From contig CANLJX010000004.1 of the NCBI GenBank assembly GCA_947491545.1, positions 1 through 54,555 on the forward strand: 54,555 nt of DNA, written 5' to 3'. Source of the DNA: Deltaproteobacteria bacterium (GTDB lineage Bacteria > Bdellovibrionota_C > UBA2361 > OMII01). This document shows positions 1 to 50,860 of this stretch, one piece after another; the first letter of the stretch is position 1; every line of letters starts with the position of its first letter. A program made the translations under genes and the position numbers. The notes beneath the pieces were generated by a model. It was not told where the DNA came from. It made no database searches and saw only the letters and a list, made by a program, of their open reading frames with translations.

Positions 1-27
1 CAAGTTGCCCTCGCCGCTCTCTTTGTG
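1..27. repeat. Repeat module A, right arm only (truncated by window start)
   Basis: GTTGCCCTCGCCGCTCTCTTTGTG matches the right arm of the other A copies (e.g. GTTGCCCTCGCTGAACTCTTTGTG ending near 35102). Confidence 0.75.
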
Positions 28-124
28 AAAACACTCCCATCACATTATGGGGTAGGCGATTTTCTCCGGCTTGGCGCCAGCTCGCTACTGCACTGGTTGC
101 CTTAAAATCCGATAACCACCAGGC

Positions 125-166
125 AACGGGAACGGCACCGGCTCCGGTACCGGTTCCGCTCCCGAA
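125..166 (+). repeat. Repeat module B, degenerate CGGNNC hexamer tract
   Basis: CGGGAA CGGCAC CGGCTC CGGTAC CGGTTC CGCTCC CGAA; similar to the reverse complement of 17048-17090. Confidence 0.65.
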
Positions 167-199
167 TCGCACCTGCCTTGAAGCTAGCCAGAACCGCCC

Positions 200-1903
200 T
201 TACTTCAACCCCTTCCCCGTCCCGCGATACACATTCCACTGGCCAATCTCTGCCAGCTTCTTGTCGCTCAACGTGGGGTCGATTCCGAGCAGCTCCTTCT
301 CGTTGCGATTGCGCACGACGAGCACATCTACGTCCGCATTCGGAATCTGCGGGTCCTCTAGGTTCACGATCGTCAGAGATGGGCTCTGGTGCAGCGGACC
401 GTAGAAGGTGGACGAGAACGGGAAGTACACGGGGAATCCGACCCGAATCTGAGCGTCTGGCTTCGAGAGCGATGCAACCAATTCAAGAACGCGGCGTGAA
501 GAGCGGTTGTTCGAGATATGGTTGTTCCACGCTACGGATGCGAGGGCATACGTCATGACCGTGCAGACTGCGAGTCGTCCGATCTCCTTTATTGGAGATG
601 TCTGCGCCCGGTTCACGTAGAGCGATGCTACGTACAAGAAAGCCACCGCAATCACGCACGCAGCGAGAGCGCCTGGGGTCCCGTACATTGTAACGCCGAT
701 AATCGCCCCGGTGAATGTTACTGCAGCCAAGAGGACCGTGAGGCCACGCGTGAGCTTGTACGAGAAGCGCAGCGCGCCTTCATCTGGCTCAACGAAGCGA
801 GCCCACAGCACAGCGCCCAAGAAAGCGAAGCCTGGAATGGAAGGCATGATGTAGGTGCCTGTGTACTGCCGCGCTCCGAGCAGCAGGAACGGGCAGCAAG
901 TTGCCCAGAGAACACCAAAGAGCAGGTCTGGATCAACAACGATCTTCTGTACTGAGCTTTTGCTGAAGACCTGCTTGTAGCGAGCAGCAAACCAGAACAG
1001 GAGCATTACAGACCACGGGACGAGTGCTGGAATCATCATCAACCACGCGGCACCGAAAGGTTGGCGATGGCCAGAGCCGTACACGTCGCCGTACTCCTTC
1101 TTAAAGAAGCGGCCGAAATTCTCCGAGATGAAAAAATACTCCAAGAATCCCGGAGTTTTTAGCTCAGCCAGAATGTACCAAGGCATGGCGACCACCAGGA
1201 AGAGCAGCGTGCCGGCAATCCACGGCAGTGCGGCAAACTGCTTAGGCCACTTTCCGGTGGTGTAGCGCAGAATCACCATCCAGGGCACGACGATGAGTCC
1301 CGGCAGCACGACTGCCAGAGGCCCCTTGACTAACATGCCGATGCCAGCACCAACGAATGCGACGTAGCCCCAAACGTTCGAAACTTGGAGCGAGCCCGGC
1401 CCTCTTCTTTTTTCAGCAAGAAGAAATCCGACGATCGACATGGTTGTGCCAAGCGTCAACGTCGTGTCTAGCAGCGCTGCTCCGGCGAGGAAGAAGGCTA
1501 TCGTCGAGGATGCGAAGATAATTGCTGCTGTGTAACCGGCCGTAATACCGAGCCGAACCCTGCCCGCAAAACCGAGCAGCACTCCAATTCCGATTCCGCT
1601 TAGCACACCCGGAAGGCGAGCTGCGAACGATGTGTATCCGAAGAGGAGGTAAGAGATCTGCATCAGCCAGAAGTGGAGCGGGGGCTTGCCGTTGTAGGGC
1701 ACCTCAACTCCCCGCAAGTTGATCCACGGCGTAATCCAATCGTTGCGGTCGAGCATTATCTTGGCGACCGAGCCGTAGCGACCCTCGGTTGAGTCCACCA
1801 GGTCAGGGAAAGGCAGGGTAAGGAGCCGCATCAAAACGATGGTTGCGAGAATGGCTATGGAGCCTTTCGCGAACTGCCGGGAAGAAAATTGTGGGACGTG
1901 CAC
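200..1903 (-). CDS. ArnT/PMT-family (GT-C fold) polyprenyl-phospho-sugar-dependent glycosyltransferase
   Basis: Motifs DSTEGRY, W.TP......Y.GKPPL.FW, FAARLP, KGP and PWY plus many TM helices, typical of ArnT-like GT83/GT39. Confidence 0.9.
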   Translation of the reverse strand: MHVPQFSSRQFAKGSIAILATIVLMRLLTLPFPDLVDSTEGRYGSVAKIMLDRNDWITPWINLRGVEVPYNGKPPLHFWLMQISYLLFGYTSFAARLPGVLSGIGIGVLLGFAGRVRLGITAGYTAAIIFASSTIAFFLAGAALLDTTLTLGTTMSIVGFLLAEKRRGPGSLQVSNVWGYVAFVGAGIGMLVKGPLAVVLPGLIVVPWMVILRYTTGKWPKQFAALPWIAGTLLFLVVAMPWYILAELKTPGFLEYFFISENFGRFFKKEYGDVYGSGHRQPFGAAWLMMIPALVPWSVMLLFWFAARYKQVFSKSSVQKIVVDPDLLFGVLWATCCPFLLLGARQYTGTYIMPSIPGFAFLGAVLWARFVEPDEGALRFSYKLTRGLTVLLAAVTFTGAIIGVTMYGTPGALAACVIAVAFLYVASLYVNRAQTSPIKEIGRLAVCTVMTYALASVAWNNHISNNRSSRRVLELVASLSKPDAQIRVGFPVYFPFSSTFYGPLHQSPSLTIVNLEDPQIPNADVDVLVVRNRNEKELLGIDPTLSDKKLAEIGQWNVYRGTGKGLK

Positions 1904-2210
1904 AGTATATCCTCAAGGAACTTCAAGGCGCCGAGGTTATCACCTGGAGAGGGGGCTGACGAGCCGTCTAGGGTATAAAAATGATGACCCTGTTGCTGGG
2001 TAACTTGAGTCCCTGCCAGGGAAAAAAGAGAGGAGCAGCTACCGGTCGATCAGGGGAGGTTTTGTGGCAACCGACCGGTAGTGCTCCACGCCTAAGGTGA
2101 TTGACGGCCCTCTCTCCACTCTATTCAGGACCTGCGGCGCTTTTTCCTCATCCTACTCCGTAAGTGCCAGTGCCGCTGAGGTATCTGGACCAATTTCCCG
2201 CGGGATCTTC

Positions 2211-3467
2211 ATGTTCTTTTCGGTATCGATGACGCGTCTTGTGGCGCGGATCTGTGCGCTCTTTGCGCTGCTGCATACCGGCGGCTGCTTCCGCGTTTCG
2301 CGTGATCACCTCTACGACGGGCCCCCGCCTCGGCCGGCAGCGATGGAGCGCTACTACGCGCCTGAACAGAGCTACACCGGCTACCGCGAGGAGATCGAGA
2401 AGGCAACGCCGAAGTTTACGATCAAGCACATCACCGTGGAGTCCTACGCAGGACCGATCGTAATCGACTACTTCCAGACCCCGAAGCAGAGCGATGCGCT
2501 TGTGCTCGTCTTCCCGGTGCTGGGCGGAAAGAACTTCATCGAGCGGCACATGGCAAAGTACTTCGCCGAGGCTGGATTCGATGCAGCGATTGTAAACCGC
2601 AGCAACGAGTTTAAGGATCCAGCGAAGTTCGATCAGCTTGAGGAGATCTTCAGGCTCAACGTGATTCGCGATCGTCTCGCGCTCGACTTTTTCCAGAACG
2701 AGTACGGCAAGGCTCGCTTCGGCACCTTCGGCATCAGCCGCGGCGCAATTAATGTGGCGCTGACTGCGGGGATCGACGATCGGCTCAAGTACAACGTGCT
2801 CGTGATGGGGGGCACTGACCTAGTCGACCTCTTCCGTGACTCAAACCAGCCGCGCATATCGAATTACATCCAGATGGTCTCTGAACAGAAAGGTTTTGTT
2901 CAGGAGCAGTTCTTTGAGGCGTTGCGCCGGCAGCTCCGTACCGACCCTAAAAACACAGCGCGTTACCTTGATGGGCGCGATACGCTCCTTATCCTCGGCA
3001 TCTTCGACCGCACCGTGCCATTCCGGTATGGGCTCAGGCTGCGCGAACAGATCGGACGGCCGGAGACGGTCTTCTTGCTCGCGGACCACTATGTTGGAGT
3101 GCTTTACTCGCAGACGGTGTCAGTCGTGCCGCCAAGCAAAGATGGTCCTGGGCTCTTCCCATTTCCGTACGTCGAAGAGGAGGCGCTCAATTTCTACGAC
3201 CGGCACTTCAACAACGAGACGCACTGGACGATCATCCCGTACCGGATACTGCAGACCCCGGTGAATCTCCTTGCCGAGGGCTTCGCCGAAGTCGGCTCGT
3301 TCTTCGAGTGGGCGTTCGACTCGGATGAAGATGAGCCTTCGGACGACGAGAGCGAAGAGAGTGAACAGTACTGGGTTGAGGCGCTTCAGATTGCGGCGGG
3401 GGCGAAGCCCGAAGATGCCGAGGGGTTGGCGTTGCAGGGGGGCACCGGAGTGGCTTCGGTGCGGTAG
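2211..3467 (+). CDS. Alpha/beta-hydrolase-fold putative lipoprotein
   Basis: G-I-S-R-G nucleophile elbow, FDRTVP (Asp) and ADHY (His); hydrophobic signal ending in TGGC; start moved from GTG 2097 to ATG 2211 (2229 also possible). Confidence 0.7.
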   Translation: MFFSVSMTRLVARICALFALLHTGGCFRVSRDHLYDGPPPRPAAMERYYAPEQSYTGYREEIEKATPKFTIKHITVESYAGPIVIDYFQTPKQSDALVLVFPVLGGKNFIERHMAKYFAEAGFDAAIVNRSNEFKDPAKFDQLEEIFRLNVIRDRLALDFFQNEYGKARFGTFGISRGAINVALTAGIDDRLKYNVLVMGGTDLVDLFRDSNQPRISNYIQMVSEQKGFVQEQFFEALRRQLRTDPKNTARYLDGRDTLLILGIFDRTVPFRYGLRLREQIGRPETVFLLADHYVGVLYSQTVSVVPPSKDGPGLFPFPYVEEEALNFYDRHFNNETHWTIIPYRILQTPVNLLAEGFAEVGSFFEWAFDSDEDEPSDDESEESEQYWVEALQIAAGAKPEDAEGLALQGGTGVASVR

Positions 3468-3483
3468 CTGAAGGGGGAGGTTT

Positions 3484-3868
3484 ACAAAGAGAGCAGCGAG
3501 AGCAGCGGGCAGGGGAAAGCCAGACTAATTCCCCCTCGCTGTTCTCGCTGCTCTCTTTGTGTTTATTCCCCTCCTCAAGCCTGCTCTTGGCGGCAGTGAT
3601 CTCTGATTTTTGTGCTGCGGAGCCGTAGCCGGAACCGTTCCCGCTGCCGCTCCCGGTTGGTGGGGCCCACGTCGCGATACTCCTTACCCGGGCACGGCAC
3701 CGGGAACGGTTCCGGTTTCGGCTCCTTCGCGCTTAGCGGGACTCTCTGCCGTGTACGGGTACGTGCACGTTCACGTCCCGAGCGGGATTTGTTTTACAAA
3801 GAGAGCAGCGAGAGCAGAGAGGGGAAATGAAGTTAACTCCCCCTCGCTGTTCTCGCTGCTCTCTTTGT
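3484..3868. repeat. Composite intergenic repeat island: A (3484-3560), divergent B pair (3613-3742), D (3751-3780), A (3796-3868)
   Basis: Two ACAAAGAGAGCAGCGAGAGCAG...CTGTTCTCGCTGCTCTCTTTGT hairpins bracket hexamer elements between convergent genes. Confidence 0.85.
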
Positions 3869-3878
3869 GTCTTCCCCC

Positions 3879-5141: not shown

Positions 5142-5298
5142 AACGTTTGTGGCTTTCTTCCCAGTATAGCGAGCTTTTGTGTGGCTCCGAAGCACGGAAC
5201 TACTTAAGGGAACATTCGGCGGATTTGTCCTTTTTCTTGAGCACGAACTAGGCTGCTTGGGCGCCGCGAGAAGCTGTTATAACGGCGATTGGGGCGGG

Positions 5299-5682: not shown

Positions 5683-5953
5683 GTGCGAATTTCTGTGCTT
5701 CCAGGGGAGGTCTTTCCTGTGCGTCAGCAGCCTGCTCATCGTAGCTAGCCTGCTCCGAGCAGGCAACGAGGGGAGTGAGAGCCGATTAGCGTTGTTTCGG
5801 CAGCAACGCCGCTCTAGTGCTGTGCTGCAGCCCGTGGCGTGCTATATGCGGGGCGCACAGTTTCGCCGTATTTCTTTATACTTGGACCCTTTTTTCTGGC
5901 GAGAGAGTCTAAGTAGTACTGAGTGTGCGTAGCGAAGCACGAGGAGAAATAGA

Positions 5954-7243: not shown

Positions 7244-7286
7244 AGAGCTGGCGTTCCTGGGGCTTGAACGGAGCCCAGGTAGGGCG

Positions 7287-7841
7287 CTAGCCCTTTGGCC
7301 ACGTTATTGAGCTGTCCTCATCAGCTGCGTTCCTGCAGCATTCCTCGAATTCCTGCGAGCATTTTTGAATCTTTGCCTGGTCTTTCTTCCATGAAAGCAG
7401 GTTGGCTAGGAGCTGAGCGATGAGGACCCCTTTTTCAGTGGCCTGCTTCATAAAGTACTGCATCGCCTTTGGATCTTTTGGATCTTTCTCGTTCCGGGCC
7501 TTCCAGAAGAAATCCTCCTGCTCCTTTTTGAGGCGCTCAATTCGCTCAAGGATCAGGGCCTCGTTGTCCGGCAGCTGCGTAAAATCATCCGTTCCCGCAA
7601 TGCAGTAGATGAAAGCAGACTCGCATTTAGAGAGATACGCTGGACAGCCATTTGCTGGGGGGTACCGAGGGGTTTGAGTCCCATTTGCCGGTTGAGGGTC
7701 TGCCGGCGACGAAGCTGATGCGTTACCGGGGGCCATCGCGCTCTGCGGCGCAGAGAAGGCAGCTGCTGGCATCAATAGCATCGCGATGGATAGCGAGCAG
7801 ATGAGCTTGGTTAAAAATCCCCAAGAGCCTTGATTTGTCAT
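7287..7841 (-). CDS. Hypothetical secreted, Cys-containing helical protein
   Basis: GGAGG SD before ATG 7841; signal-like N-terminus (…LLMPAAAFSA); Cys clusters at both ends of a predicted helical hairpin. Confidence 0.6.
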   Translation of the reverse strand: MTNQGSWGFLTKLICSLSIAMLLMPAAAFSAPQSAMAPGNASASSPADPQPANGTQTPRYPPANGCPAYLSKCESAFIYCIAGTDDFTQLPDNEALILERIERLKKEQEDFFWKARNEKDPKDPKAMQYFMKQATEKGVLIAQLLANLLSWKKDQAKIQKCSQEFEECCRNAADEDSSITWPKG

Positions 7842-8045
7842 AAGCGCCTCCCTGTAGTGAAGTAGGTAGTCGGGCTGTTTTTCAAGGGGCTTGAGCGTCA
7901 AGACCACCCTAAAGAACTTTGAGTTTAGGGAGCATGTTGTTTCAATTGGTTATAGCGCTGAAGCTGTTTTAGGCCCTGAATAGAGGAGAGGGAGAAGAGC
8001 CTTCTCCCAGATGCTTCGAGAGGAGGAGCCTAGGGCTGGCGAACG

Positions 8046-9353: not shown

Positions 9354-10115
9354 CTACCACGGCAGAATGCTGAAGGTGCCTTGGCTCTCTACCTTGGCGA
9401 AGCCGTCGCGGTTAAGAGCTTCAGCAATGATGTTGGCCCATGTCGACACTATCTCGCGGTTCGGGCTTGTGACGGTTACTTTGTTGAGATCCAAGAGCCT
9501 TGTGGGTGGGAACTTCCTGTCTGCAGCCGTTGCGACCAGCTTCCCGGTCTTTCCGTCGTACACCCGAGCGGCGAACGCTACGTGTGGGTCGGAGATAGCA
9601 GAGAAGAGCATCGCGGAGCCGGGTACCGGCACTAGGAGCGCGCCGGTGTTCTCAATTGGCTGAGAGAATTCGTTCTCGGTGATGGCGAGATCGATTACGA
9701 GGCCATCCGGCATCGGCTTGTCTACAACTTTCATCGTCCCCTTCGGGTACTTCTCGACCTTGTTCTTGAGCTGCTCAAGGAAGTAGTCCGCCAGAAGCTG
9801 GGATTCCTTCATGAAGTCGGCCTCTGAGGTGATGTAGACACTCTTGCTGTCCTTCCAGCTCTCCGGTGGAAGCTTTGAGAGCGTCACTGAGCGGAAATAC
9901 ACATTGTGGTAGTGGCCGAGCGGGAAGTTCGGCTCAACCCAGGCGTGATCGAATGGGAGGGTCTTGTCTTTAACCGATACGTCCCGGTCCTCAAGGAAGA
10001 GGTTTGAGACTGGATTGGTGCGTTTTTCTACGGCGCAGCCGGTGAGGGTAAAAAGAGCTGCTACGACCTGCACTGCTGCTACGAACTTTGTAAAGGAGTG
10101 GCTGAGGTTGCGCAT
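9354..10115 (-). CDS. Lipoprotein, DUF3313-like
   Basis: Lipobox LTGC; DLAITE...AARVYDGKTGKLVA.AADR pattern; start moved to ATG 10115. Confidence 0.65.
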   Translation of the reverse strand: MRNLSHSFTKFVAAVQVVAALFTLTGCAVEKRTNPVSNLFLEDRDVSVKDKTLPFDHAWVEPNFPLGHYHNVYFRSVTLSKLPPESWKDSKSVYITSEADFMKESQLLADYFLEQLKNKVEKYPKGTMKVVDKPMPDGLVIDLAITENEFSQPIENTGALLVPVPGSAMLFSAISDPHVAFAARVYDGKTGKLVATAADRKFPPTRLLDLNKVTVTSPNREIVSTWANIIAEALNRDGFAKVESQGTFSILPW

Positions 10116-10332
10116 AGTTACTTTTTTTCTGATTGAGTTTTCCGGCGAGAGTCGGCTCGGGGGATGGTCACACCAAAGCTGGTGGTTTTCAAGGCTAGAA
10201 CTTTGGGGTGAAGGGCGGGGTTGGTGTCGGGGCCGGAGTTGTTGGGTTTTTCGCTGGCCGTGGAATTGAGTGGGTGATAACGAGCACAGAGATAAGGTAA
10301 GCCCTTGTTTTGAGCCCCAAATCACGCCTTCC

Positions 10333-10570
10333 CACGTGAACGGGCACGTGTCCGTTCACGAACCCGATAAAAGTGACCGAGGAATAATTAAACACAAAGA
10401 GAGCGGCGAGAGCAGAGAGGGGAAGGTGGAACGAGCTTAATCCCTCTCGCTGTTCTCGCTGACCTCTTTGTGAACATTCCTCGCATCGACTCTGAGCCAG
10501 CCATCGAGCCATCAGTCTTTCTATCCCTCTAACCTTCACACACGTGAACGTAAACGAGCACGTTCACGTC
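10333..10570. repeat. Composite repeat island: D (10333-10366), A (10394-10471), D (10541-10570)
   Basis: CACGTGAACGGGCACGTGTCCGTTCACG; ACAAAGAGAGCGGCGAG...CTCGCTGACCTCTTTGT; CACGTGAACGTAAACGAGCACGTTCACG. Confidence 0.8.
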
Positions 10571-10720
10571 GGCGTAACACCGACTCTACCCACTCGATTT
10601 CACCAAGAGACGGTTTTTTGGGGGTCGACCGTGGGGGGGATATTTGGCATACCATTCCAAGGAGTTATCCGGTGATGGGCGTGTTTTGCGCGGTCGCCGG
10701 TCTGTAGCCGTAAACCAAGC

Positions 10721-16720: not shown

Positions 16721-17047
16721 AACGTGTGCGCCTCTATGCGTGAATCGGAGCCTACAACAGGCATGCAGTGCATGCAGCGTTTCGGCCCGAAAGCGGAGTC
16801 TTTCCGCGCTTATGTAAGATGAGTCGAGGTGTTAGCCAGGATGCGCCTTTGGCGGTTATCTGGGCGTAAAAGCGGGGGGAAAGCCGGTATGACGGCGAGG
16901 TTTTAGTGCTTCGGGGACAGGGTGGGTATTTCGGGGGATTTTGGGATGGTGTTTTCGATGGTTTCTTCGGGGATAGGGGTGAACGCTGTTTTGGGTTGGG
17001 CTTTGTGCGGGACTAGAAACGGAAACGGTTTGGTGCACCAGTGTGGG

Positions 17048-17090
17048 GTTCGGAGCGGGAGCCGGAGCCGGGACCGGAGCCGTTCCCGGG
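17048..17090 (-). repeat. Repeat module B, degenerate
   Basis: GTTCGGAGCGGGAGCCGGAGCCGGGACCGGAGCCGTTCCCGGG hexamer tract just past a stop codon. Confidence 0.65.
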
Positions 17091-17122
17091 GAGTATGGGG
17101 AGGAGAATTAAGGGCGCGAGGG

Positions 17123-18835
17123 TTAGGTCGGGCGCAGGATTACGAAGAGGACGTCGAGTTTGAAGTCTAGGTTGAGTGTGAGGGGTTCTGTTCGGACTTC
17201 CTTGGTGAAGCCGGGGAACTCTTGTGTTGCGATAGGGTCTCCGACTGAGGCGACGATGATCCCTGGCTGGCGAGGTTGAGCAGCTGTTGGCATGGCATCC
17301 TTCGCCTGCAGTCGCTGCCAGTTCGGCAGGAAGTACTGTGCGCACGGCAGGAAGCTTTCAACTCGCGGGTTGTTGAGGCGATCCATCAGCCATCCGGTCG
17401 CGTAGGGGGTTAAGCCGGACTGTTGAACGAGGCTGATCACCTTCTCTGCCACTACCTCACGGCCCATGGCCGGCCGACCGGGGGTGAAGAGCGGCTGCGT
17501 TTTGTAGGTCTCGCGAACCGAGTAGCCAACTCCGACTGCGAGCAGAATTAGCACGGTGCGTGCTACGATTGCGCGTGGCTTTGTGCGGCTTGTAAGCCAG
17601 AGGACCAAGCGCCCCATCATGAGGACGAGCGCCGGGATGATGATGAGAGCGCGGTACAGGGCTAACGGCAGCTCCGGCGATATCTTTCCGCGCATGTTGA
17701 TCGACGCCCAGATGACTGGAAGGCACCACGCGACGAGCAGAACTGGGAGCGGACCGGCACGCAGCGTTAGGGCGAACACCATCGCGATAATCGTTGGGAT
17801 AACGAACTCCTTCGGCGTAAAGATCGTTTTCGATATTGAGAATGTCATGTCCAGCGCTTGCTGAAAGTTGAAGATCATCTCGGAGAAGGTAATGAGGCGC
17901 GGCTTGATGGTGTTGGTCGTAACGAACTTGAGCGCAAGGATGATCACCACGCAGTTGATGAGCACCGCTACGAGAAGGGTGCAGAGAGATCGTTCGCCGC
18001 GCGCCCAGGCCCGGACAGCCCACAGCGCCAGGAGCATGACCAGCAGCGCCACCAGCGCCATGCCGGAAGTGAAGGAGGCTGCTAGCAGCGCCACGGCCCA
18101 CGCGGCGACGACTCCGCCGACGCTGGTTGGGCGGGCTGCAAAGAGCATCACGGCTCCGATCGCCCAAAGCCCGAAGCTCAATGAAGAGACCGCCATCTCA
18201 AACGAGCGGCTAATTGTGCAGAAGGTTGGGTAGGCGAACATTGCGGTCGCCATCAGGCCAGATACTGCCGAAGAGAAGCGGTGCTTAGAGTGGTACCGTC
18301 GGCTGCCTGCGAAGAAGAAGAGCGCGCCAAAGAGGATGGGGAAGGAGAAGCCGATACGGTATGCGACGGGAGTCGGGCCGAGGAAGAAGGTAGGAATTAG
18401 GTTAATCAGGAGCGAGCGCCCCGGATACGAAACCCAGAACACCCCGGTGTACCCGAGGTCGGGCTTCTGGAGCTCCTCAAGGGCGTACTGAAGCTCGGAG
18501 AGGGACTCTGTGTTGAGCATGCCGTACGAGCCAAGCTGGAAGAAGCAAAGCGGTACCGCTGCGGCGAGAGGCAGGAGCCCCCAAAACCCCCCGCGCCGCG
18601 CGTCTTCGGCCACGGCAATCAGGTACTCGCGGCAGAGGTACACGAAACAAAAGATGCTAAGAGCGATCCAGAGGTAACAGGCGACGATTGCAGCAATCCC
18701 GCCAACGGTGAACGCCAGCACCTCAAGCAGCGCTACAGCGATCAGCAGAAGGACTGATTCTTTTAGTCGCGCGAGGCCAGGGGCGCCCTCTCCTTGCTCG
18801 AAAGGCAGAAGGGGGCGAGCCAAAAGTTTTTTCAT
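17123..18835 (-). CDS. Polytopic membrane protein, putative divergent GT-C glycosyltransferase
   Basis: LNTE loop, YP...L..P..FLG.TPVAYR, ISRSFE, many TM helices, soluble C-terminal domain. Confidence 0.55.
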   Translation of the reverse strand: MKKLLARPLLPFEQGEGAPGLARLKESVLLLIAVALLEVLAFTVGGIAAIVACYLWIALSIFCFVYLCREYLIAVAEDARRGGFWGLLPLAAAVPLCFFQLGSYGMLNTESLSELQYALEELQKPDLGYTGVFWVSYPGRSLLINLIPTFFLGPTPVAYRIGFSFPILFGALFFFAGSRRYHSKHRFSSAVSGLMATAMFAYPTFCTISRSFEMAVSSLSFGLWAIGAVMLFAARPTSVGGVVAAWAVALLAASFTSGMALVALLVMLLALWAVRAWARGERSLCTLLVAVLINCVVIILALKFVTTNTIKPRLITFSEMIFNFQQALDMTFSISKTIFTPKEFVIPTIIAMVFALTLRAGPLPVLLVAWCLPVIWASINMRGKISPELPLALYRALIIIPALVLMMGRLVLWLTSRTKPRAIVARTVLILLAVGVGYSVRETYKTQPLFTPGRPAMGREVVAEKVISLVQQSGLTPYATGWLMDRLNNPRVESFLPCAQYFLPNWQRLQAKDAMPTAAQPRQPGIIVASVGDPIATQEFPGFTKEVRTEPLTLNLDFKLDVLFVILRPT

Positions 18836-20173: not shown

Positions 20174-20438
20174 GAGCTGAGTTCCCTTCGGGAGCAAAAG
20201 ACGAGGGAAAAACCCCCGCCTATCAAACGCTGGTTTGAAAACCGGCGAGGGCGGACAGTAAAACTAAAACACGAACGATTGCAGGCTGCAATCCGATAAG
20301 ACTTTAGATGTGGCTAGTGCCTTGTTCGAGGCTGCCACGTCGTTAGGTGAAGAAACTTTCTAAACGAGGCACTAGTTTTTCATAGTCGAGCAAGCTGCTC
20401 TGTTTTTTGGGGGAGGGGATGCTGTTGCTTGTTCGGGA

Positions 20439-20503
20439 GTTCCGCTGAGCGCTGCGGAGCCGCAGCCGGAACCGGAGCCGTTACCGGGGCCGATCCCGGT
20501 TAG
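20439..20503 (-). repeat. Repeat module B, full 65-nt copy
   Basis: Reverse complement matches 33026-33090 with 3 mismatches; abuts the stop codon at 20504. Confidence 0.9.
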
Positions 20504-31469: not shown

Positions 31470-32789
31470 TCAGTGAGTTGAGCCGAGAATTGAGGCTGCG
31501 ACGTGCTGAGCACGCTCGCGCAGCTCCCTAACAGCGGTAATCTCCCACAGCACCTCCTTCTGAAGTGGCCCCACCACAGCGAAATTGGGTCGGTGCGGAA
31601 CCCCTTCGGTGTCGAGACCAAGCGCTAGCTGGCCTGGTCGGATCAGCTGCTGAGCAACGAGGCTCGCCACCAGGGGATGGTCGATCCGACGAATGTCGCC
31701 CTCTGGCCCAGCACACATGAAGCCTGCGTCGAAGCGGAGCCGCTCGGCTTCTCCGCCACAGCCCCGCAGCGTGACAACAGCTTCACGGGCTGATACCTCG
31801 GACACCTTGCCGGCCCGGATCGTCAACCGCCCTGCTGCTTGCAGCTCGCGGATGGCCTGCAGGTGCTCGTGCGGGATGCGGTGCCGATGAATCTCCCAGA
31901 AGGGGCGCAGGTGCCGGAGAAAAGCCCGTTGCTCAGTCAGAGAGAGGTTGGTCCACATCTGCTGGATCTTTGGCCGCATGGCGTCGAACACGGGCTGCGA
32001 CGAGCCGCACGCGCGCGATGCTTTGCGAATCGTCTTGAGCAGCGCAAAGGCCGTGCCAGGGTTCTCCCAGGACGGGGGAAGCGAGGCGCTGGGAAAAGAT
32101 GCTGGGTCTTCGTGCGAGAGAGGGAAGCGCCCGTTACGAGAGACAACCGAGTAGTGACCCTTAAAGCCGCGCCCCTCGCTCTCCATGATCACGTCGACTG
32201 CAGTGAGCGAGCTCCCGAGGATAAAAAGCTTGCGCAGCTGATCGAGGTCTCGGTAGCTCTGCGGGTTAAAAGGCTCTCGTAGGGCGCCTTTGGTTCCTAC
32301 ATCGCCAACACCACGACGTAAAATGTTCCCGATCGCGAGCACAACGCTGGCAGCCTCTAGTTGCTCCCCGCTCGCAAGCAGCAGGGCAAAGGATGAGCCA
32401 TCCGGTCGCTGTGTTACCTCAACCACCTCGTCCGTCTTGAGAGTCAAGCGCTGAGGCTCTCGCTGCACCGCTTCAGAGACCAGCTCCTGCAGGTAGAGCC
32501 CGTACTGCTGCCGGGAGATGAAGCTCTCGCCTGAAACAGTTGGCTCCCCCTTTTGTAGCCAATGAAGGAAGCCTTCCGGCTCCTGCGGAAAAGCCCCCAT
32601 CGCCTTAGCGCGCACGTTGAGCTTGAAGCGGTGGCTCGGGACTGTGTAGGCAAGACCGGGACCAAACGTCCCGCGCGGGTCGAAAAGCACCACGCGCAGA
32701 TCGTCTGGGGCATTTGGCTGACGAAGGATATTAAGAGCCGTCAGCGAGCCGCTAAAGCCGGCTCCTATGATGGCGATTGTGTGCGGCAT
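31470..32789 (-). CDS. FAD/NAD(P)-binding protein (NAD_binding_9/YdhS-like)
   Basis: IAIIGAGFSG, GPGLAY, LNVRA..M.AFP, GSSLTAVD, WEIHRHRIP, LWEITAVRELR. Confidence 0.88.
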   Translation of the reverse strand: MPHTIAIIGAGFSGSLTALNILRQPNAPDDLRVVLFDPRGTFGPGLAYTVPSHRFKLNVRAKAMGAFPQEPEGFLHWLQKGEPTVSGESFISRQQYGLYLQELVSEAVQREPQRLTLKTDEVVEVTQRPDGSSFALLLASGEQLEAASVVLAIGNILRRGVGDVGTKGALREPFNPQSYRDLDQLRKLFILGSSLTAVDVIMESEGRGFKGHYSVVSRNGRFPLSHEDPASFPSASLPPSWENPGTAFALLKTIRKASRACGSSQPVFDAMRPKIQQMWTNLSLTEQRAFLRHLRPFWEIHRHRIPHEHLQAIRELQAAGRLTIRAGKVSEVSAREAVVTLRGCGGEAERLRFDAGFMCAGPEGDIRRIDHPLVASLVAQQLIRPGQLALGLDTEGVPHRPNFAVVGPLQKEVLWEITAVRELRERAQHVAASILGSTH

Positions 32790-32814
32790 GGCGAGACCTT
32801 AGCACCCTGAAGGT

Positions 32815-33700
32815 GGGTGAAAAAGGGGATAGAGGTGCTCTGCAGAAAACACGTGGAGTCTCAAAGCAGATTGTAAAGGGGCATAGCATTCCTCATCCTA
32901 ATCCTTCTCTTTCTCGTGCAGCTGCACCGACTCCTGATCATAATCGAGTCGGTAGGAGTAGTTGTTATGCCGGTCAATCCTGCCCGGTGCCGTGCCCGGG
33001 TAAGGTGTGCGCAGCATGTGCCGCACTAACCGGGAGCGGCCACGGTAACGGGTCCGGTTCCGGCTGCGGCTCCGCAGCGCTCAGCGGAACGTGCACATTC
33101 ACGTTGGGGGCTGGTATGGGCAGAAGGGGGAGTTTCACAAAGAGAGCGGCGAGGACCGAGAGAGGGGGATTTATTCCCCACCCCCTCTCTGTTCTCGCTG
33201 CTCTCTTTGTTCAAATGATTGGTTGCATATGCTCCCGTTCCCGTTCCCGTTCCCGTTCCCGTTCCCGTTCCCGTTCCCGAGCGCGAGGATGGATGTGTGT
33301 GGGGGAGCAGAAGGGGGAGTTTTACAAAGAGAGCGGCGAGGCCGGAGAGAGGGGGGATTTATTTCCCACCCGTCGCTGTTCTCTTTTTTCAAATAACTGG
33401 TCGGATATGTTCCCGTTCCCGGGCAAGAAGTGTTGCGGCGAGTGTTCCACCAACCGGGAGCGGCCACGGCACCGGTTCCGGCTGCGGCTCCGCAGCGCTT
33501 AGCGGAACTACTTGTGTACGTAAACGTGAACGCACCCGAAATAGGGGTCATTTGGACTGCGCAGACGAGGACGAGGAATCCAGTGCAAGTGCAGGAGAAG
33601 GAGGACGAGCAGGGGAAGGATTGGGAAGAGAGCGGCGGGCTATTTAGCCTCGGTCGGGAGGACACGTGTTCTACTTGGCATGTCCGTTACCCTTTTCGCT
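32815..33700. repeat. Large composite repeat island: C(-), B pair, D, A, (CCCGTT)7, A, B pair, D, C(+)
   Basis: C 32815-32950 (-) and 33564-33700 (+); B 32983-33090 and 33411-33508; A 33137-33210 and 33324-33389; SSR 33234-33279. Confidence 0.85.
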
Positions 33701-34829: not shown

Positions 34830-35107
34830 GGAAGGGGCTCCTTTGTTTACGCGATTTGCGCGAAGACATTTATTTACAACGAGAGCGGCGAGGGGAAGCC
34901 CCTTGTTTCTACCCATCTCTCGTTGTCCTCGCTGAACTCTTTGTGCAATTCCTTCTGTTGCTATCTGGCGAAAGAAGGGGGCTGGTACCTGTATGTGCGC
35001 GATTTGTGTGAGGACATTAATTAACAAAGAGAGCGGCGAGAGCGGTGAGGGGAAGCCCCTTGTTCCTGCCCATCTCCGGTTGCCCTCGCTGAACTCTTTG
35101 TGCAATT
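34830..35107. repeat. Tandem pair of module A hairpins (34876-34944, 35024-35101) with shared flanks and loops
   Basis: Both units share GCGATTTG..GA.GACATT.ATT.ACAA, loop GAGGGGAAGCCCCTTGTT and CTCGCTGAACTCTTTGTGCAATT; between convergent genes. Confidence 0.85.
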
Positions 35108-45289: not shown

Positions 45290-45307
45290 GGAGCTGCTAC
45301 AGCGGGC

Positions 45308-46207: not shown

Positions 46208-46223
46208 AGGGGCGTCCTGTAAG

Positions 46224-46280
46224 AAAAAAGCCCCGCTCTGGCATGCACCCTACCTGGGTGTAGCATGGCAGAACGGACCT
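46224..46280 (-). terminator. Intrinsic terminator-like hairpin just upstream of the MBL gene
   Basis: Minus strand AGGTCCGTTCTG...CAGAGCGGGGC followed by T6. Confidence 0.55.
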
Positions 46281-46341
46281 CTAAAGACTCTCACAGTTGG
46301 TCGACTTACAAAAGTGCGACCCGAATATGTTTGAAAGGCAC

Positions 46342-46392
46342 AAAAAAAGGCAGGGAGCCTGTTCCTCGGCGAAGCCGAAAAAGGTCCCTGCC
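46342..46392 (-). terminator. Rho-independent terminator of recA
   Basis: Minus strand GGCAGGGACCT...TCGGCTTCGCCGA...AGGCTCCCTGCC followed by T7, ~25 nt after the recA stop. Confidence 0.75.
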
Positions 46393-46416
46393 CCTCGCTG
46401 TTTAGGCTTGAAGAAG

Positions 46417-47556
46417 CTAGCTGTTGGCAGCCACCTTCTTGCGCGATCGGGTGCTCTTCTCAGTCGCAGCGCTCTCGTTCTCTGAGTCGGAGTTGTTTGC
46501 GGCCGTACCCTCAGAGGTCGCGGTCTCACCTGAGCCGACACCACAAGAATCCATTATGAGGGTGCGAATCTGCGCCGCCATCTCCGGGTTCTCACGCAGG
46601 AACTGCTTCGCACCCTCACGGCCCTGGCCGATTCGCTCGCCGCGGAAGCTGAACCAGGCGCCGGCCTTATCGACGACTCCTTTGTCTGAGCCGATGTCAA
46701 CAAGCTCTCCGAGGGAGCTTACGCCCTCGTTGAAGATAATGTCGAACTCGGCTTCGCGGAATGGAGCAGCAACCTTGTTCTTGACGACTTTAACGCGCAC
46801 ACGGTTTCCGGTGACGCTGTCGGCTTCCTTGATAGAGCCGATACGCCGCACGTCCAAACGCACAGAGGCGTAGAACTTAAGGGCGTTTCCGCCGGTGGTG
46901 GTCTCGGGGCTGCCGAACATGACACCGATCTTCATGCGGATCTGGTTGATGAAGAGGATAGTGGTGTTGGACTTGGCTGAAGCTGCTGTCAGCTTGCGCA
47001 GAGCCTTAGACATTAGGCGAGCCTGAAGACCTGGCTGTTGGTCCTCCATCTCGCCATCGATCTCAGCGCGAGGAACAAGCGCTGCCACTGAGTCAATGAC
47101 GACGAGGTCCACTGATGAGGATGAAACGATCGCTTCGCATATGTCGAGCGCCTGCTCACCACAGTCTGGCTGGCTCACGAGAAGCTTCGAGGTATCTACG
47201 CCGAGACGCTTGGCATAGTTGACGTCGAGAGCATGCTCCGCATCAATGAAGACAACGGTGCCGCCGGCGCGTTGAACCTGCGCCGCGGTACTGAGAGCAA
47301 GGGTGGTTTTTCCAGAGGACTCAGGACCGTATACTTCGCAGATCCGTCCCTTGGGGATTCCGCCAATGCCGAGAGCGATATCTAATCCAACGCTTCCGGT
47401 TGAGTGTGCTTCCACTTTCTCGGACATTGATGTGCCGAGGTTCATGATTGCGCCCTTGCCGTACTTCTTTTCTAGCTGGGAGATGGCTGATGAGAGAGCC
47501 TTGCTCTTCTCGCCCGTGTTTTCTGTGTTCTCTGTGTCACGCTCGTACAGTTCCAT
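46417..47556 (-). CDS. recA: Recombinase A
   Basis: [57 protein letters not shown]; AAGGAG SD. Confidence 0.98.
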
Positions 47557-47714
47557 GTTTCTCTCCTTAGGTTCTTCCTTTTGTTAAACTGTTTTTCCTA
47601 TCGCTTTTCGAGATCTCTGCTGATTTCGTTTCTTCGCCCCCGCACTGCTGGCGGCTGCTCGCCGTTCAGACGAGTGTTTCTACTCGATCCGGGCTAGCGT
47701 GTTAACGACAATCG

Positions 47715-48383
47715 TCAATTGAGCTGTCGAATTACTCCGATCAACCGCCCCTGAATCGTCACCTTGTCCACAGTCAGCGGCTGCATGGTCGGATTAGCTG
47801 GGATCAGCATAACCTGACCACTCTTCAATCGGCGATAGCGCTTCAGAGTTGCGCTTCCGTCGTCGAGTAGGGCCACAACTATCTGCCCATCTTCGGCTCC
47901 GTCCTGCTTCTTGATGACCACTACATCGCGGTCACAGATGTGCTCGTCGATCATCGAGTTTCCGCTCACTTCGAGGCAGTAGACCTCGCCTCGACCGTCG
48001 ATCATGCTTGGCGGGATCTCGATAGTTGTTGATTGCTCTACCGCTTCAATCGGGCGGCCTGCGGCGATAACGCCCACGAGCGGCACCGCAGTCGGACCCA
48101 ATTCGGGGGTGGCTCGGTCTAGCAGCTCCAGCATTCCGTCCGCTCCGCGGCGGATGAATCCCTTCTGTTCGAGCCGCTCCAGGTGGAAGTGGGCAGTTGA
48201 CGCCGATTTGACGCCGATGAAGTCCGAGATCGCCTTCAGGGACGGGGCATAACCCTTCTCGGCGAGGAAGTTTCTAAGAAACTCAAGGGTTTGGCGTTGA
48301 ACAGGCGCCAGAGTGCTGGACTGAAATCCGGCTGCTTCCGGCGCTAGAGCGTCAGTTTGTTTGCGGTTTTTTGTCTTCATCAT
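47715..48383 (-). CDS. lexA: SOS repressor LexA
   Basis: GYAPS wHTH, LERLEQKGFI, IAAG cleavage site, GNSM (Ser) and ATLKR (Lys); start 48383 has an AGGGA SD (48404 alternative). Confidence 0.95.
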   Translation of the reverse strand: MMKTKNRKQTDALAPEAAGFQSSTLAPVQRQTLEFLRNFLAEKGYAPSLKAISDFIGVKSASTAHFHLERLEQKGFIRRGADGMLELLDRATPELGPTAVPLVGVIAAGRPIEAVEQSTTIEIPPSMIDGRGEVYCLEVSGNSMIDEHICDRDVVVIKKQDGAEDGQIVVALLDDGSATLKRYRRLKSGQVMLIPANPTMQPLTVDKVTIQGRLIGVIRQLN

Positions 48384-48414
48384 CAATCCCTGTTGAGATG
48401 CCATCTAGGGGCGT

Positions 48415-48443
48415 ACCATATGCAAAAAAAATAGAATCGGCAA
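48415..48443 (-). promoter_or_regulatory. Putative sigma70 promoter of lexA
   Basis: Minus strand TTGCCG-17nt-TATGGT with AT-rich upstream sequence. Confidence 0.55.
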
Positions 48444-48613
48444 GGAATTATTTTAGTTGTCGGGTTTGTGGGTACTCCGGGTGGGTGTCGGTAATCTGGC
48501 GCCGTTGGTCCGGAGCGGCAACGAATGCCGGCAAGTTCTGTCGCAGAAATCACACATAATCTGGGGGTTTAGCAGACTCGCGTCGGCGCCGATAAGAAGT
48601 ATATGCGAGGCGA

Positions 48614-49084
48614 ATGAACGCCTCGGCTGCTCAGGTGCTGCATACTTCGATGACTAGCATACCGACACATCGCGTGATGACGACGGCGCTCCGAAAGGAG
48701 GTTCGCCTGCTCGTCGTTGACGATCATGAGGAGCACTTCGAGCAGCTTCGCGAGATCGCCGAGATGTATCACCCGGAGTTCCGCGTTGAGTGTAAGCTGG
48801 CTTCGACTGCGGTCGAGGCGGTCGGTCTCGCCTGCTCGTGGAAGGCTTCGGTAGTTCTCCTGGATCTTCACGTGATCTCTAGCGCCTTGGATCTGGTGAA
48901 GCAGCTTGCAACACAAGGCACAGCAGTAGTCGCGACGAGCGACACTCGCCTTCCGGAGCTCGCTGAGACAGCTTCTGAGTACGGCGCAGTTGGCTACCTC
49001 TCAAAGAGCGACAACCCGGATGACATCGAGGCTCTGCTCACATTCATCGCAGGAGTCTCGGTCGAAGGGAGCCCGCACCAGTAA
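48614..49084 (+). CDS. Single-domain response regulator (receiver)
   Basis: LLVVDD, VVLLDL, ATS, GAVGYLSK; true start may be downstream. Confidence 0.82.
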   Translation: MNASAAQVLHTSMTSIPTHRVMTTALRKEVRLLVVDDHEEHFEQLREIAEMYHPEFRVECKLASTAVEAVGLACSWKASVVLLDLHVISSALDLVKQLATQGTAVVATSDTRLPELAETASEYGAVGYLSKSDNPDDIEALLTFIAGVSVEGSPHQ

Positions 49085-49201
49085 GTTTCCGCGAGCTAGT
49101 CGCGCCCTCGCATCCCCATTCTCTACCTTGCGAAGCCCCAACCCACGCAGTAAGTACTCGTTGTCGCGTGGTTGTTATCTGCCTCTCTTGTTCGGCGTCG
49201 T

Positions 49202-50605
49202 ATGGTTCGCCTCTCAGCGCGAGCGGTTTACTCGCTCTCCCTGCCGTCTCAGCGCCTTCTTCGAGGAGTTCTGTTTCTTTTCATTGTAACAGCGCTCGTT
49301 CTCGGGGTGTCGGCAGCGCAGGCGCAGTCTCGCAAGGGCGGTAAGCCGCGTGCCAAGGGATCGCCACTGCGCTCCCTGAGTGCGCCTAAAGTGCTTCGCA
49401 AGCTCGATCTCAAAGACTTCGGCTCCCAGGTCGTGAAGTTCGGGCGGCTCGGTAGTGCCGGAGCGCTCTCGGCACTCTTTGTTCAGGTAAACTACGATAG
49501 AGAGATTACGTGCTTAACAGCGGTCTCTCTCGATACGAGTGAAGTGCTGTGGCAGCTCGGCACACCAGATGCGTCGAATTACAAAGCCACTTCAGAGATT
49601 CCGGTTCAGGTTTTCGACTGGAACGAGGATGGCTTCGACGACGTAATCTTCGCCCAGAGCGGCAGCGTTGCAGTTGTGAACGGAGCCGACGCGAGCAGGC
49701 TCGCATCGGTGCAGGCGGAGACTCCCTACAGCATCTTCGTGTACGAGACTGAGCAGTTCGGTGGTTCAGCTGGATTGGTGCTCCATGGGCGCACGTCGAC
49801 GACCCTGCTTGGGCCCAACCTATCGGTTGTGTGGACTAGGCCGAATGAGTTCTCGCATTTTCCGATGGCGATGGACGTCGACGATGACGATGAGCCTGAG
49901 CTGCTCGCGGGGTACCTGCTGTTCCGCTCCAACGGCGAGTTAATCTGGGACCGACGAGACCTCGGCGCGCATAACGACGCCTCCGATTTCGGCGATGTCG
50001 ATTGTGATGGGGAGCGCGATGTCGCAATTGCGACGAGTGGCAAGAGCGCGCTGCTCAAGCGCGACGGGTCGATTCTTTGGCGTGGAGTCGAGAATCACTC
50101 GCAGCACATCACGATGGGTTCATTCCTTCCGGGGCGCTGCGAACGGCAGATTGCAACAATCGATCGAGACCCGGGAGAGAGCGGAATTTTGAGGCTCTAC
50201 GGCCACCGCGGAAAGCTGCTGTGGGAGAGTAGGGGTCATGGTCCTAAGGCGATGATGACACGGATTGACGACTGGATACCGCAGTCAGAGGAGAGCCTAA
50301 TCTTGGTGTTTCGTAGCTTCACGCAGCCGCCGATGCTCTACGACGGCAAGGGCGCAGTTGTTGGCAAGCTGCCGTTTCCGCCAGCCGTTGTCCGAGGCTC
50401 CAAAGGGGCTGCCTACGGAAAGCACTACGCCCAGCACTTCGACACAGATGGTGACGGCAGGGAGGAGATCTTGCTCTACAACGAGCGGGCTCTCTGGGTG
50501 TATGGCAACTCAGCAGCAGTCGTCGGGGCAAGCAACAAGAAGCCATCCCAAGCCCTTCCTAATCCGCGTATCTTCAATGCCACGTTCTACATGGGGATGC
50601 AGTAG
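49202..50605 (+). CDS. Secreted FG-GAP/beta-propeller Ca-binding protein (PL11 rhamnogalacturonan-lyase-like)
   Basis: Repeated DxDxDG..E/D loops (DWNEDGFDD, DVDDDDEPE, DVDCDGERD, DTDGDGREE); EVLWQLG, NPRIFNATFY; start uncertain. Confidence 0.65.
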   Translation: MVRLSARAVYSLSLPSQRLLRGVLFLFIVTALVLGVSAAQAQSRKGGKPRAKGSPLRSLSAPKVLRKLDLKDFGSQVVKFGRLGSAGALSALFVQVNYDREITCLTAVSLDTSEVLWQLGTPDASNYKATSEIPVQVFDWNEDGFDDVIFAQSGSVAVVNGADASRLASVQAETPYSIFVYETEQFGGSAGLVLHGRTSTTLLGPNLSVVWTRPNEFSHFPMAMDVDDDDEPELLAGYLLFRSNGELIWDRRDLGAHNDASDFGDVDCDGERDVAIATSGKSALLKRDGSILWRGVENHSQHITMGSFLPGRCERQIATIDRDPGESGILRLYGHRGKLLWESRGHGPKAMMTRIDDWIPQSEESLILVFRSFTQPPMLYDGKGAVVGKLPFPPAVVRGSKGAAYGKHYAQHFDTDGDGREEILLYNERALWVYGNSAAVVGASNKKPSQALPNPRIFNATFYMGMQ

Positions 50606-50712
50606 CCCGGGGGCGGCTTAAGCGAGACTGGTGCAAACCCGAGGGTTCAAAGGTAAGCATAGCCTGGCGACAGATCGTGCCGGTTGCCCACAATATTCGT
50701 GTCGAGATGCCC

Positions 50713-50860
50713 GAATGAGGACTAGGAGCCCGGTGCAAGTGCAGGAGGATGAGAAGGGGAAAGATAAGGAAAAGCTCGGAGGAAAGAGCACCCTGCTACG
50801 AAATCCTCAGGGACAAGACATGTTTTCTACAGAGCGCTACAAACCCCTTTTTCGATTCAC
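50713..50860 (+). repeat. Repeat module C
   Basis: GAGGACTAGGAGCCCGGTGCAAGTGCAGGAG...GACATGTTTTCTAC...CCCCTTTTTC parallels 33564-33700 and the reverse complement of 32815-32950. Confidence 0.7.

Follow-up and report, generated by a model that had tools for sequence, protein, structure and literature searches.

Four families of dispersed repeats, here called modules A, B, C and D, recur between the genes of a 54,555-nucleotide stretch of DNA from a Deltaproteobacteria bacterium (GTDB lineage Bacteria; Bdellovibrionota_C; UBA2361; OMII01), and we consider it probable, at roughly 0.65, that they descend, as inverted-repeat arms or other remnants, from small gene cassettes with the build of the intervening sequences (IVSs) of 23S rRNA. 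The stretch (hereafter the window) is one entire contig (CANLJX010000004.1; here C4) of the genome bin GCA_947491545.1 (here G000), which comprises 3.03 Mb in 206 contigs and is ~84% complete; the other G-numbers (G001, G007 and so on) denote relatives of G000, with G007 being its sister species. On this reading, A derives from cassettes carrying a GxxExxY gene, and D and C derive from two arm types of cassettes carrying a four-helix-bundle (S23p/IVP) gene; the B array is written in the same hexamer style as the others and lies outside D or in D's place. The proposal is built on observed relations between arms and genes, on nesting, copy numbers and distribution, and on the kinds of change seen between genomes. 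The finding is larger than an earlier, sequence-only reading of the window had described, and is best read as a lineage-specific population of relics of IVS-like cassettes from two protein families, each relic lacking an open reading frame (ORF).

In the course of events that we envisage, a cassette would have consisted of a short ORF between two complementary arms, each made of tandem 6- to 10-nt sub-repeats. Such cassettes would have multiplied in the ancestor of the G000 species and its sister, and most of them would then have lost the ORF by internal deletion, leaving bare hairpins. New copies may have landed preferentially in the loops of older hairpins, after which slippage of 6-nt units, tandem duplication and deletion would have reshaped the islands into the present mosaic.

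Module families and their placement

Profile models of the four modules were built from the window copies and run with nhmmer over all of G000, with strands merged and loci deduplicated. In the window, each position that the sequence-only reading had assigned to a module has a repeat there or no more than a few bases away. The repeats extend far beyond the window, with 107 A, 106 B, 135 C and 10 D loci genome-wide, those of B, C and D being spread over 50, 64 and 6 contigs, respectively, and with no match to any of the four models in a control set of 922,900 bases from 80 unrelated bacterial loci. Since 18–25 copies of each of A, B and C sit at contig ends, the true copy numbers must be higher. 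The loci form 211 module islands in G000, 89 of which contain at least two modules. The modules had been described as lying only between genes. This holds for at least 90% of them (97 of 107 A, 97 of 106 B, 129 of 135 C and all 10 D copies, counting as intergenic any copy with less than 20% overlap with called genes) and for every copy in the window, and it fails for 10 A, 9 B and 6 C copies, as judged from the calls of our own crude gene caller, which marked 84% of G000 as coding.

The four modules had also been taken as unrelated, a view that does not survive inspection of their anatomy: A, C and D each form arms of long hairpins, C within a palindromic element of ~280–320 bp. A is an imperfect hairpin of ~80 nt that starts with ACAAAGAG and is composed of a purine-rich 5′ arm of 29 nt (ACAAAGAGAGCGGCGAG...GAGGGG), a loop that varies over ~10–35 nt and a pyrimidine-rich 3′ arm; 229 arm matches in G000 include 73 hairpin pairs, and 30 folded copies have a mean energy of −43.6 kcal/mol (z about −8). 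In B, (CCGGNN)n arrays vary in unit number and form 19 inverted pairs, and D is an (ACGTNN)n array. The C element has conserved termini of ~34 nt that contain CTGTAG. There are 75 such termini and 19 complete copies of 238–415 nt, six folded copies reach about −85 to −128 kcal/mol, and a full-length C model gives 265 strand-wise matches (strands not merged). Periodicity runs through all four families, with a lag-6 self-identity of 0.64 for B, 0.56 for C and 0.65 for D, and of 0.56 at lag 9 for the A arms, as compared with 0.26 for module-free intergenic background. Among 104 copies of A, 65 are oriented in agreement with local GC skew (p 0.014, though copies in tandem are not independent of one another), and B and C show no bias relative to GC skew.

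Are the modules perhaps an artefact, whether of chance low complexity, of mis-assembly of the bin or of unrecognised coding repeats? The array period is a multiple of three, stop-free arrays are crossed by spurious ORFs, and the bin is fragmented, with many copies at contig ends. An artefact is nevertheless scarcely credible, given the empty control set of 0.92 Mb, the occurrence of copies in both orientations and as inverted pairs, unlike coding repeats, the same islands in contigs from three other studies and the orthologous copies in the sister species. As a practical matter, the module families break assemblies and produce long spurious ORFs (e.g., 32777-33502), because their period is a multiple of three and the arrays lack stop codons.

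No Rfam family reaches its gathering score for any module, tRNA-Gly at 54282 of the window being the only one to pass, and in a permissive search the islands match only eukaryotic miRNA-precursor hairpins far under threshold (e.g., 45.3 vs 80 bits). An all-against-all BLAST of the G000 gene calls found no protein family enriched beside modules, the best case being three of six members adjacent (p 0.04, uncorrected).

A-type arms and the GxxExxY cassette

It was the search for flanked protein families, suggested by the sequence-only reading, that gave the origin of the modules: A arms bracket GxxExxY genes, and D and C arms bracket four-helix-bundle genes in congeners. Weak A matches in other species are A arms around a gene. 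In G000 itself, C68:8462-8905 is an ORF of 147 aa that scores 148.8 bits against TIGR04256 (GxxExxY; cut-off 35), with residues 4–15 encoded by the A 5′ arm, and the final residues and the stop codon by the A 3′ arm. The cassette carrying A arms is ~450 bp long, and G000 has one intact copy of it. When this cassette is compared with the genome, the 20-nt bins over its 5′ arm average 33 and 62 overlapping matches, and the ORF interior has none. A-type arms surround GxxExxY genes also in G007, G002 (two loci), G010, G003 and G039, and an internally deleted intermediate of ~210 nt is found in G015. The other GxxExxY genes of the genus have arms whose sequence differs by subfamily and whose build is equal, with about three sub-repeats of 8–10 nt. 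In a sample from the phylum, an inverted repeat scoring at least 13 and above all 30 shuffles, with its 5′ arm ending at most 35 nt from the gene, accompanies 21 of 35 GxxExxY loci, including nine of 21 loci outside the genus. G008 contains three copies (~99% identical, as read by eye off the alignment) of a 611-bp GxxExxY unit that is bounded by AACGT on both sides, each copy lying in a different context.

Residues E39, D79, E89 and K91 are invariant in 16 GxxExxY proteins, a pattern that we take to be the expected look of an active PD-(D/E)XK nuclease site. A sequence search with the protein returned no match in the PDB at E ≤ 0.01. By sequence, the protein is assigned the PD-(D/E)XK nuclease fold; Pfam puts the family (PDDEXK_3) in that superfamily and, in the portion of PMC3424549 available, its function is listed as unknown. 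The nuclease could be the enzyme that moves A-type elements.

Two further observations concern GxxExxY genes. First, a second such gene in G000 (C10:39848-40192, minus strand) has arms of another type (TTAATTAACGCGGAGGCG...) and two TAG codons in frame; short derivatives of this arm type occur at 4–7 places, one of them within an A loop on C56, where G007 lacks it. Second, a motif, TAAGCAACT...CCGAT, lies ~40–60 nt upstream of the 5′ arm, outside the inverted repeat, in most GxxExxY cassettes of the genus and with every arm type (loci L157-L172), and is not evident in the cassettes of G001; it may serve as a promoter or belong to the mobile unit.

D- and C-type arms and the four-helix-bundle genes

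PF05635, the four-helix-bundle protein of 23S-rRNA IVSs, is multi-copy in several congeners, with many partial matches; it is reported to be similar to the Avd protein of diversity-generating retroelements (PMC10053308, available part). The (ACGTNN)n arms of D, together with an outer pair of inverted repeats, bracket PF05635 genes in the congeners G008, G042 and G039, and a PF05635 copy of G036 retains the 3′ D arm only. This D-type cassette is ~93% or more identical (by eye, off the alignment) in three species, and its flanks do not align. C-type arms surround a PF05635 gene in the congener G046, where the right arm of C aligns well and the left arm aligns poorly with the upstream flank in MAFFT, the match there being read by eye. 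In D- and C-type cassettes alike, the four-helix-bundle ORF lies fully within the loop, and the GxxExxY and four-helix-bundle cassettes have a common outer tail. On contig C23 of G001 (locus L215, ~1880-2010), a four-helix-bundle gene is followed downstream by a long CCCTTA/CCCTTC-like pyrimidine array and then by a D-like array, which looks like a further arm style.

Other candidate cargo was sought in G000 and rejected. DUF559 has no match; GIY-YIG has two, one being a 665-aa open frame that is presumably UvrC, and the other a small gene with no A–D modules nearby. The ORFs between distant B or C pairs are ordinary genes. A search among long solo-arm pairs for a full-length insertion sequence with A-type ends gave only a RecQ gene, between two A arrays, and the GxxExxY cassette.

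Islands in the window

The module copies of the window are listed below by position, with strand and evidence.

1-35 (+): 3′ arm of A, truncated by the contig end (repeat family D2, copy 4-35; sequence read)
124-172 (+): B array, (CCGGNN)n, immediately downstream of the stop of the minus-strand gene 200-1903 (nhmmer, 39.0 bits)
3484-3561 (+): A hairpin of island 2, between convergent genes (nhmmer, 69.2 bits)
3610-3742 (no strand): inverted B pair, 3610-3660 (-) and 3685-3742 (+) (nhmmer)
3747-3779 (+): D array, (ACGTNN)n, with 4 units in the window vs 7 in G007 (nhmmer)
3796-3869 (+): A hairpin (nhmmer, 73.4 bits)
10259-10604 (+): island 3, complete frame of four-helix-bundle (IVP) type with an A hairpin in place of the ORF (pattern, nhmmer and alignment)
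10259-10277 and 10586-10604: outer inverted repeats of island 3 (pattern; 2 matches in the window vs 0.01 expected)
10333-10364 and 10540-10573: inner D arms of island 3 (nhmmer)
10394-10472: A hairpin of island 3, at the gene's expected place (nhmmer)
17038-17093 (-): B array downstream of the gene 17123-18835 (nhmmer)
20360-20503 (-): island 5, B array 20439-20503, then the start of a four-helix-bundle ORF, with its leader and first ~8 codons (~20372-20392) (nhmmer and alignment)
32826-32948 (+): left terminus and pyrimidine-rich arm of C, model positions 2-131 (full-length C model, 96.7 bits)
32983-33105 (+): short inverted B arm (~32983-33010), B array (33025-33090) and D array (~33078-33105), nested within the C element (nhmmer, repeat search and eye)
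33137-33390 (+): A hairpins at 33137-33211 and 33324-33390, repeated in tandem with a unit of 187 nt; (TCCCGT)8 lies between them at 33233-33280 (nhmmer and repeat search)
33450-33539 (+): B array 33450-33508, then D array 33511-33539 (nhmmer)
33551-33690 (+): purine-rich arm and degenerate right terminus of C, model positions 162-301, of the same C element as 32826-32948 (full-length C model)
34877-35102 (+): island 7, A hairpins at 34877-34945 and 35024-35102, repeated in tandem with a unit of 148-157 nt; the genes on either side are convergent (nhmmer and repeat search)
50682-50846 (+): island 8, half of a C element, from its centre over the purine-rich arm to the right terminus (full-length C model, 89.7 bits)

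Three of these islands tie the bare modules to the four-helix-bundle cassette. First, island 3 is the complete frame of such a cassette with an A hairpin where the gene would be expected, and its conserved 3′ tail is invariant as compared with the IVP cassettes of G008, G036 and G039. The longest reading of the minus-strand ORF 9354-10325 begins within this frame, and its true start is thus probably further downstream. Second, island 5 retains the beginning of the ORF itself, in 21 consecutive columns that are identical to the 5′ ends of the IVP genes of G008, G036 and G042 except for one base in G036. The remnant is interrupted by an unrelated small repeat, family E. Third, in island 6 (32826-33690) an insert of ~600 bp, in the order B, D, A, (TCCCGT)8, A, B, D, divides a C element between model positions 131 and 162, and the C arm at 33551-33690 aligns with the sequence downstream of the four-helix-bundle gene of G046. 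Two members of the insert are less firmly placed: the B arm at 32983 is partial and was seen by eye only, without an nhmmer match at E ≤ 0.01, and the D copy at 33078-33105 comes from the repeat search only, at 71% identity.

Family E, the repeat that interrupts island 5, is ~110–150 nt long with internal inverted repeats and occupies 13–17 places in the genome, including 20290-20420 of the window and C2:66184-66341; at least three clean presence/absence differences of it separate G000 from G007. Other features of the window stand apart from the modules. Direct repeats of ~50–67 nt, spaced by 51 and 76 nt, fill 54362-54555, just downstream of tRNA-Gly(TCC) and into the contig end, and their unit recurs at eight places on five contigs. 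A segment of ~595 bp (7429-8024), covering the minus-strand ORF 7287-7907, has no counterpart at the syntenic position of G007.

The nesting in islands 3 and 6 invites an opposite order of events, in which the hairpins came first, as recombination or landing sites like integron attC, and the genes are cargo that landed in their loops, so that the bare modules would be original and the gene-bearing copies derived. Loops evidently accept insertions, as illustrated further by the element in the C56 A loop that is missing from G007; the four-helix-bundle ORF lies wholly in the loop of D- and C-type cassettes; two unrelated protein families have one architecture and a common outer tail; and bare hairpins far outnumber genes (107 A loci vs one intact A-type gene in G000). 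We nonetheless regard this order as unlikely. The A-type ORF begins upstream of the 5′ arm and ends within the 3′ arm, so that the arms are coding sequence rather than a mere frame. Deletion intermediates exist, namely the ~210-nt copy of G015 and the many partial Pfam matches, and every arm subfamily accompanies its own gene copies across species.

Distribution and change between genomes

The description of the modules as a modular, mosaic and lineage-specific system is borne out by their distribution. A is matched in 11 of 31 relatives, with many copies in G007 (67), G008 (22) and G011 (21) and few in two other families of the order; nine of the 35 genomes searched in the genus have matches to C, which is abundant in G000, G007 and G046 alone. 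In the congener G001, the intergenic regions orthologous to islands 6 and 7 are short and free of modules.

The closest comparison is with G007, from which 757 kb were taken and 653 kb aligned, window segments being ~87–94% identical where aligned. Most copies are fixed at orthologous positions in this sister species: 79 modules of G000 fall within aligned blocks and therefore sit at orthologous sites in G007, and the differences are mainly changes of unit number in multiples of six (30, 36 and 54 nt), gains or losses of tandem A copies, and deletions. The mobilisation in trans that had been proposed for the modules stays conjectural in this pair of genomes, with most of the differences seen coming from slippage, duplication and deletion. 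In the window, island 2 differs by ~105 nt, from inside the left B array through the right B array, that are missing at the orthologous site; the B array at 17038-17093 is one unit longer than its orthologue and has diverged more than its flanks; and the flanks of island 7 enclose entirely different modules in G007. G007 reads N at islands 5 and 8, hence they have no such comparison. Elsewhere, an element of a second type sits within an A loop of C56 in G000 and is missing from G007. Beside these changes, the island downstream of the cysteine-dioxygenase/Rrf2 gene pair is in G007 an inverted partial copy of the upstream island (G007 C103:12-277 and C69:8151-8371 vs window 32997-33633), so that the pair is bracketed by inverted composite repeats in G007 and not in G000.

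Contigs from the DNA runs of three other studies hold the same islands at high identity. The array at 33233-33280, (TCCCGT)8 in the window, is shorter by 36 nt in the contigs from two other metagenomes, and a TCATCT insertion and a rearranged A tandem were also seen. One metatranscriptome yielded a few contigs that are 90–99% alike over parts of modules and genes, most of them continuing into unlike sequence; being assembled contigs, they do not show transcript ends or levels.

The identities between G000 and G007 are 0.72 at third codon positions, 0.83 in other intergenic DNA, 0.91 in A arms, 0.80 in A loops, 0.85 in C and 0.775 in B. Could the modules then be host elements under selection, such as bidirectional terminators, RNA-processing sites or mRNA stabilisers, whose copy number reflects function and not past mobility? 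The A arms are conserved above A loops, flanks (0.87) and third codon positions, and the A hairpins are very stable. Between divergent genes C is scarce (7 of 104 placed copies vs 27% of intergenic bases), between convergent ones it is common (31 of 104 vs 17%), and a run of at least four A or T lies just outside 35 of 75 C termini, as compared with 12% of background windows. These observations speak for such a role, and yet we find the idea rather improbable. There is no covariation in the A stem and no orientation bias, B evolves faster than other intergenic DNA, presence within the genus is patchy, whole islands have been replaced between sister species, G001 manages the same genes with short, module-free intergenic regions at the two sites compared, and the link to cassette genes would be left unexplained. 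On the reading as cassette relics, an RNA-level effect may still exist: if transcribed, the 30- to 100-bp stems might be cut by RNase III or stop transcripts, by analogy with rRNA IVSs, whose behaviour as RNA is treated in PMC4990558 and PMC11270868 (available parts).

REP sequences and RAYT transposases

Dispersed intergenic palindromes of bacteria readily call to mind repetitive extragenic palindromic (REP) elements, described as palindromes of 20–40 nt with a GTAG or CGTC tag at one end (PMC3733652, as far as available). The modules would then be REPs or REPINs (REP doublets forming hairpins), spread by a transposase of the HUH Y1 type, the REP-associated tyrosine transposase (RAYT). G000 has six PF01797 (Y1/RAYT-like) matches, four of which are paralogues of ~330 aa with HxH and YxxNP-like motifs. 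Their positions, and those of the remaining matches, are as follows.

C21:24803-25777, C50:9103-10077, C12:38195-39301 and C44:864-1838: the four HUH/Y1 paralogues
C6:49574-50557, and a fragment on C47: other PF01797 matches

Two representatives score 35.7 and 43.4 bits against NF047646 (cut-off 80), A and C are hairpin doublets in a broad sense, and the C termini contain CTGTAG. These likenesses notwithstanding, we rejected a RAYT link for A–D, and such an origin is very improbable. None of the six PF01797 loci has an A–D module within 3 kb; the four paralogues are flanked by separate hairpin motifs of GTAG/CTAC type, clearest upstream of C21 and C50; A, B and D bear no GTAG or CGTC tag; and the RAYT-like family is adjacent to modules in none of five members, with no family enriched. 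The sequence-only reading was thus correct that the modules depart from the GTAG/CGTC form of REPs. Its statement that the window has no transposase stands insofar as genome-wide scans put no PF01797 or PF13366 match on the contig, with a Pfam scan that covered 20 of the ~41 ORFs called there.

The RAYT-like genes are of some interest in themselves. RAYTs are described as typically single-copy (PMC3116915 and PMC3733652, available parts), which makes four paralogues in G000 unusual. Tandem GTAG/CTAC hairpin units of ~24 nt stand upstream of those on C21 and C50, and each of the four is followed downstream by a related inverted motif; the unit repeated at C50 is confined to five places on two contigs.

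Weight of the evidence and implications

Several observations weigh against the proposal that the modules are cassette relics. The first group concerns the partner genes. PF05635 has no match in G000 (84% complete) or G007, which leaves ~130 C loci of G000 without a resident partner gene; the link of C to a gene is a single locus of G046, whose Pfam match is partial (model positions 2-79); B arms were found around no gene, and no B-like array occurs in any cassette locus fetched from other species; and neither G011 (21 A matches) nor G004 (8) has a GxxExxY match, so that the gene is not needed for the hairpins to persist. The second group concerns decay and movement. A loops in G000 hold no detectable ORF remnant, 14 of the 35 GxxExxY loci fall short of the inverted-repeat threshold given above, the comparison of G000 with G007, made with no outgroup, identified no clean new insertion of A, B or C with target duplication, and the presence/absence junctions have direct repeats of 7–9 nt, fitting duplication and slippage deletion alike. 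The third group concerns a role as RNA. Module orientation relative to neighbouring genes has no bias in G000, which speaks against a strand-specific RNA role, and the A stems have no covariation, the transitions of the two arms looking independent (position 18 pairs AT 26, GT 21, AC 11 and GC 11 times).

A more ambitious extension of the cassette reading is that the GxxExxY and four-helix-bundle cassettes belong together in a single, undescribed class of small mobile elements directed at hairpin tips, with the nuclease recognising the sub-repeats of the arms and driving copying. The 23S rRNA IVSs would then be members that landed in rRNA helices, and the intergenic hairpins non-autonomous offspring. 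We offer this extension only tentatively, as a possibility more doubtful than not.

The origin of IVSs, the role of the four-helix-bundle protein and that of GxxExxY proteins are described as unknown in the available parts of PMC4990558, PMC11270868 and PMC3424549. The present families offer a deletion series from gene-bearing cassette to bare hairpin, along with near-identical copies at different sites and in different species. They thereby make testable the mobility of the elements, the action of the nuclease-fold protein on the sub-repeats of the arms, homing to hairpin loops, and service of the relics as sites of RNA processing or termination.

Comparison with known systems

Miniature inverted-repeat transposable elements (MITEs) are similarly short and ORF-less and have inverted repeats in common with a longer gene-bearing element, a likeness that applies to A, D and C and for which no counterpart was found for B. 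Deletion intermediates, high copy number, intergenic placement and lineage-specific expansion are further points of agreement. Unlike for MITEs, the parent ORFs belong to TIGR04256 and PF05635 and include no recognised transposase; the inverted repeats are long (30–100 nt), made of tandem sub-repeats and partly coding; and an additional pair of inverted repeats encloses the gene-bearing copies from outside.

The short tandemly repeated repetitive (STRR) heptamer arrays of heterocystous cyanobacteria comprise several short-period tandem families that are intergenic and confined to one lineage. The modules differ from them in a period of 6 or 9 nt, not 7, and in being paired in inverse orientation, so as to form hairpins, and linked to cassette genes.

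The REP, bacterial interspersed mosaic element (BIME) and REPIN–RAYT systems, as presented in the available parts of PMC3116915 and PMC3733652, resemble the modules as intergenic palindromes, often at the 3′ ends of genes, that form mosaics of varying order and orientation and are mostly inherited vertically. A further parallel, for A, is a single-copy candidate partner gene for ~100 hairpins. The arms here are far longer and periodic, the partner proteins have other folds, and A, B and D lack GTAG/CGTC.

The closest match is the IVS of 23S rRNA. For Coxiella burnetii, the part of PMC4990558 available describes termini that pair in a stem of 28 bp, a loop with an S23p ORF, heptamers repeated in tandem a variable number of times, and cleavage by RNase III; the same source cites IVSs in the 23S rRNA of Leptospira and Salmonella, and regards the published IVS as selfish, with an unknown mode of movement. 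The literature searched, outside which most subscription journals lie, gave no description of GxxExxY or IVP cassettes as dispersed intergenic hairpin families. To call the modules an undescribed system was too strong all the same, as their architecture matches that of the published IVS. As in the IVS so described, the element measures ~430–600 bp and has complementary termini that form a stem of ~28 bp or more, a small PF05635 ORF lies in the loop (here met in the congeners G008, G042, G036, G039 and G046, not in G000), short tandem repeats whose number differs between strains stand beside the ORF start, and the ORF decays with the RNA stem kept. Unlike the IVS, the copies of the window lie between protein genes and not in helices of 23S rRNA; the families reach ~100 copies each, most of them without any ORF; the elements nest in one another and build mosaic islands; and a second, unrelated protein, GxxExxY, has the same architecture. 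What G000 and its relatives add is an IVS-like architecture outside rRNA, in hundreds of copies and with two unrelated cargo proteins.

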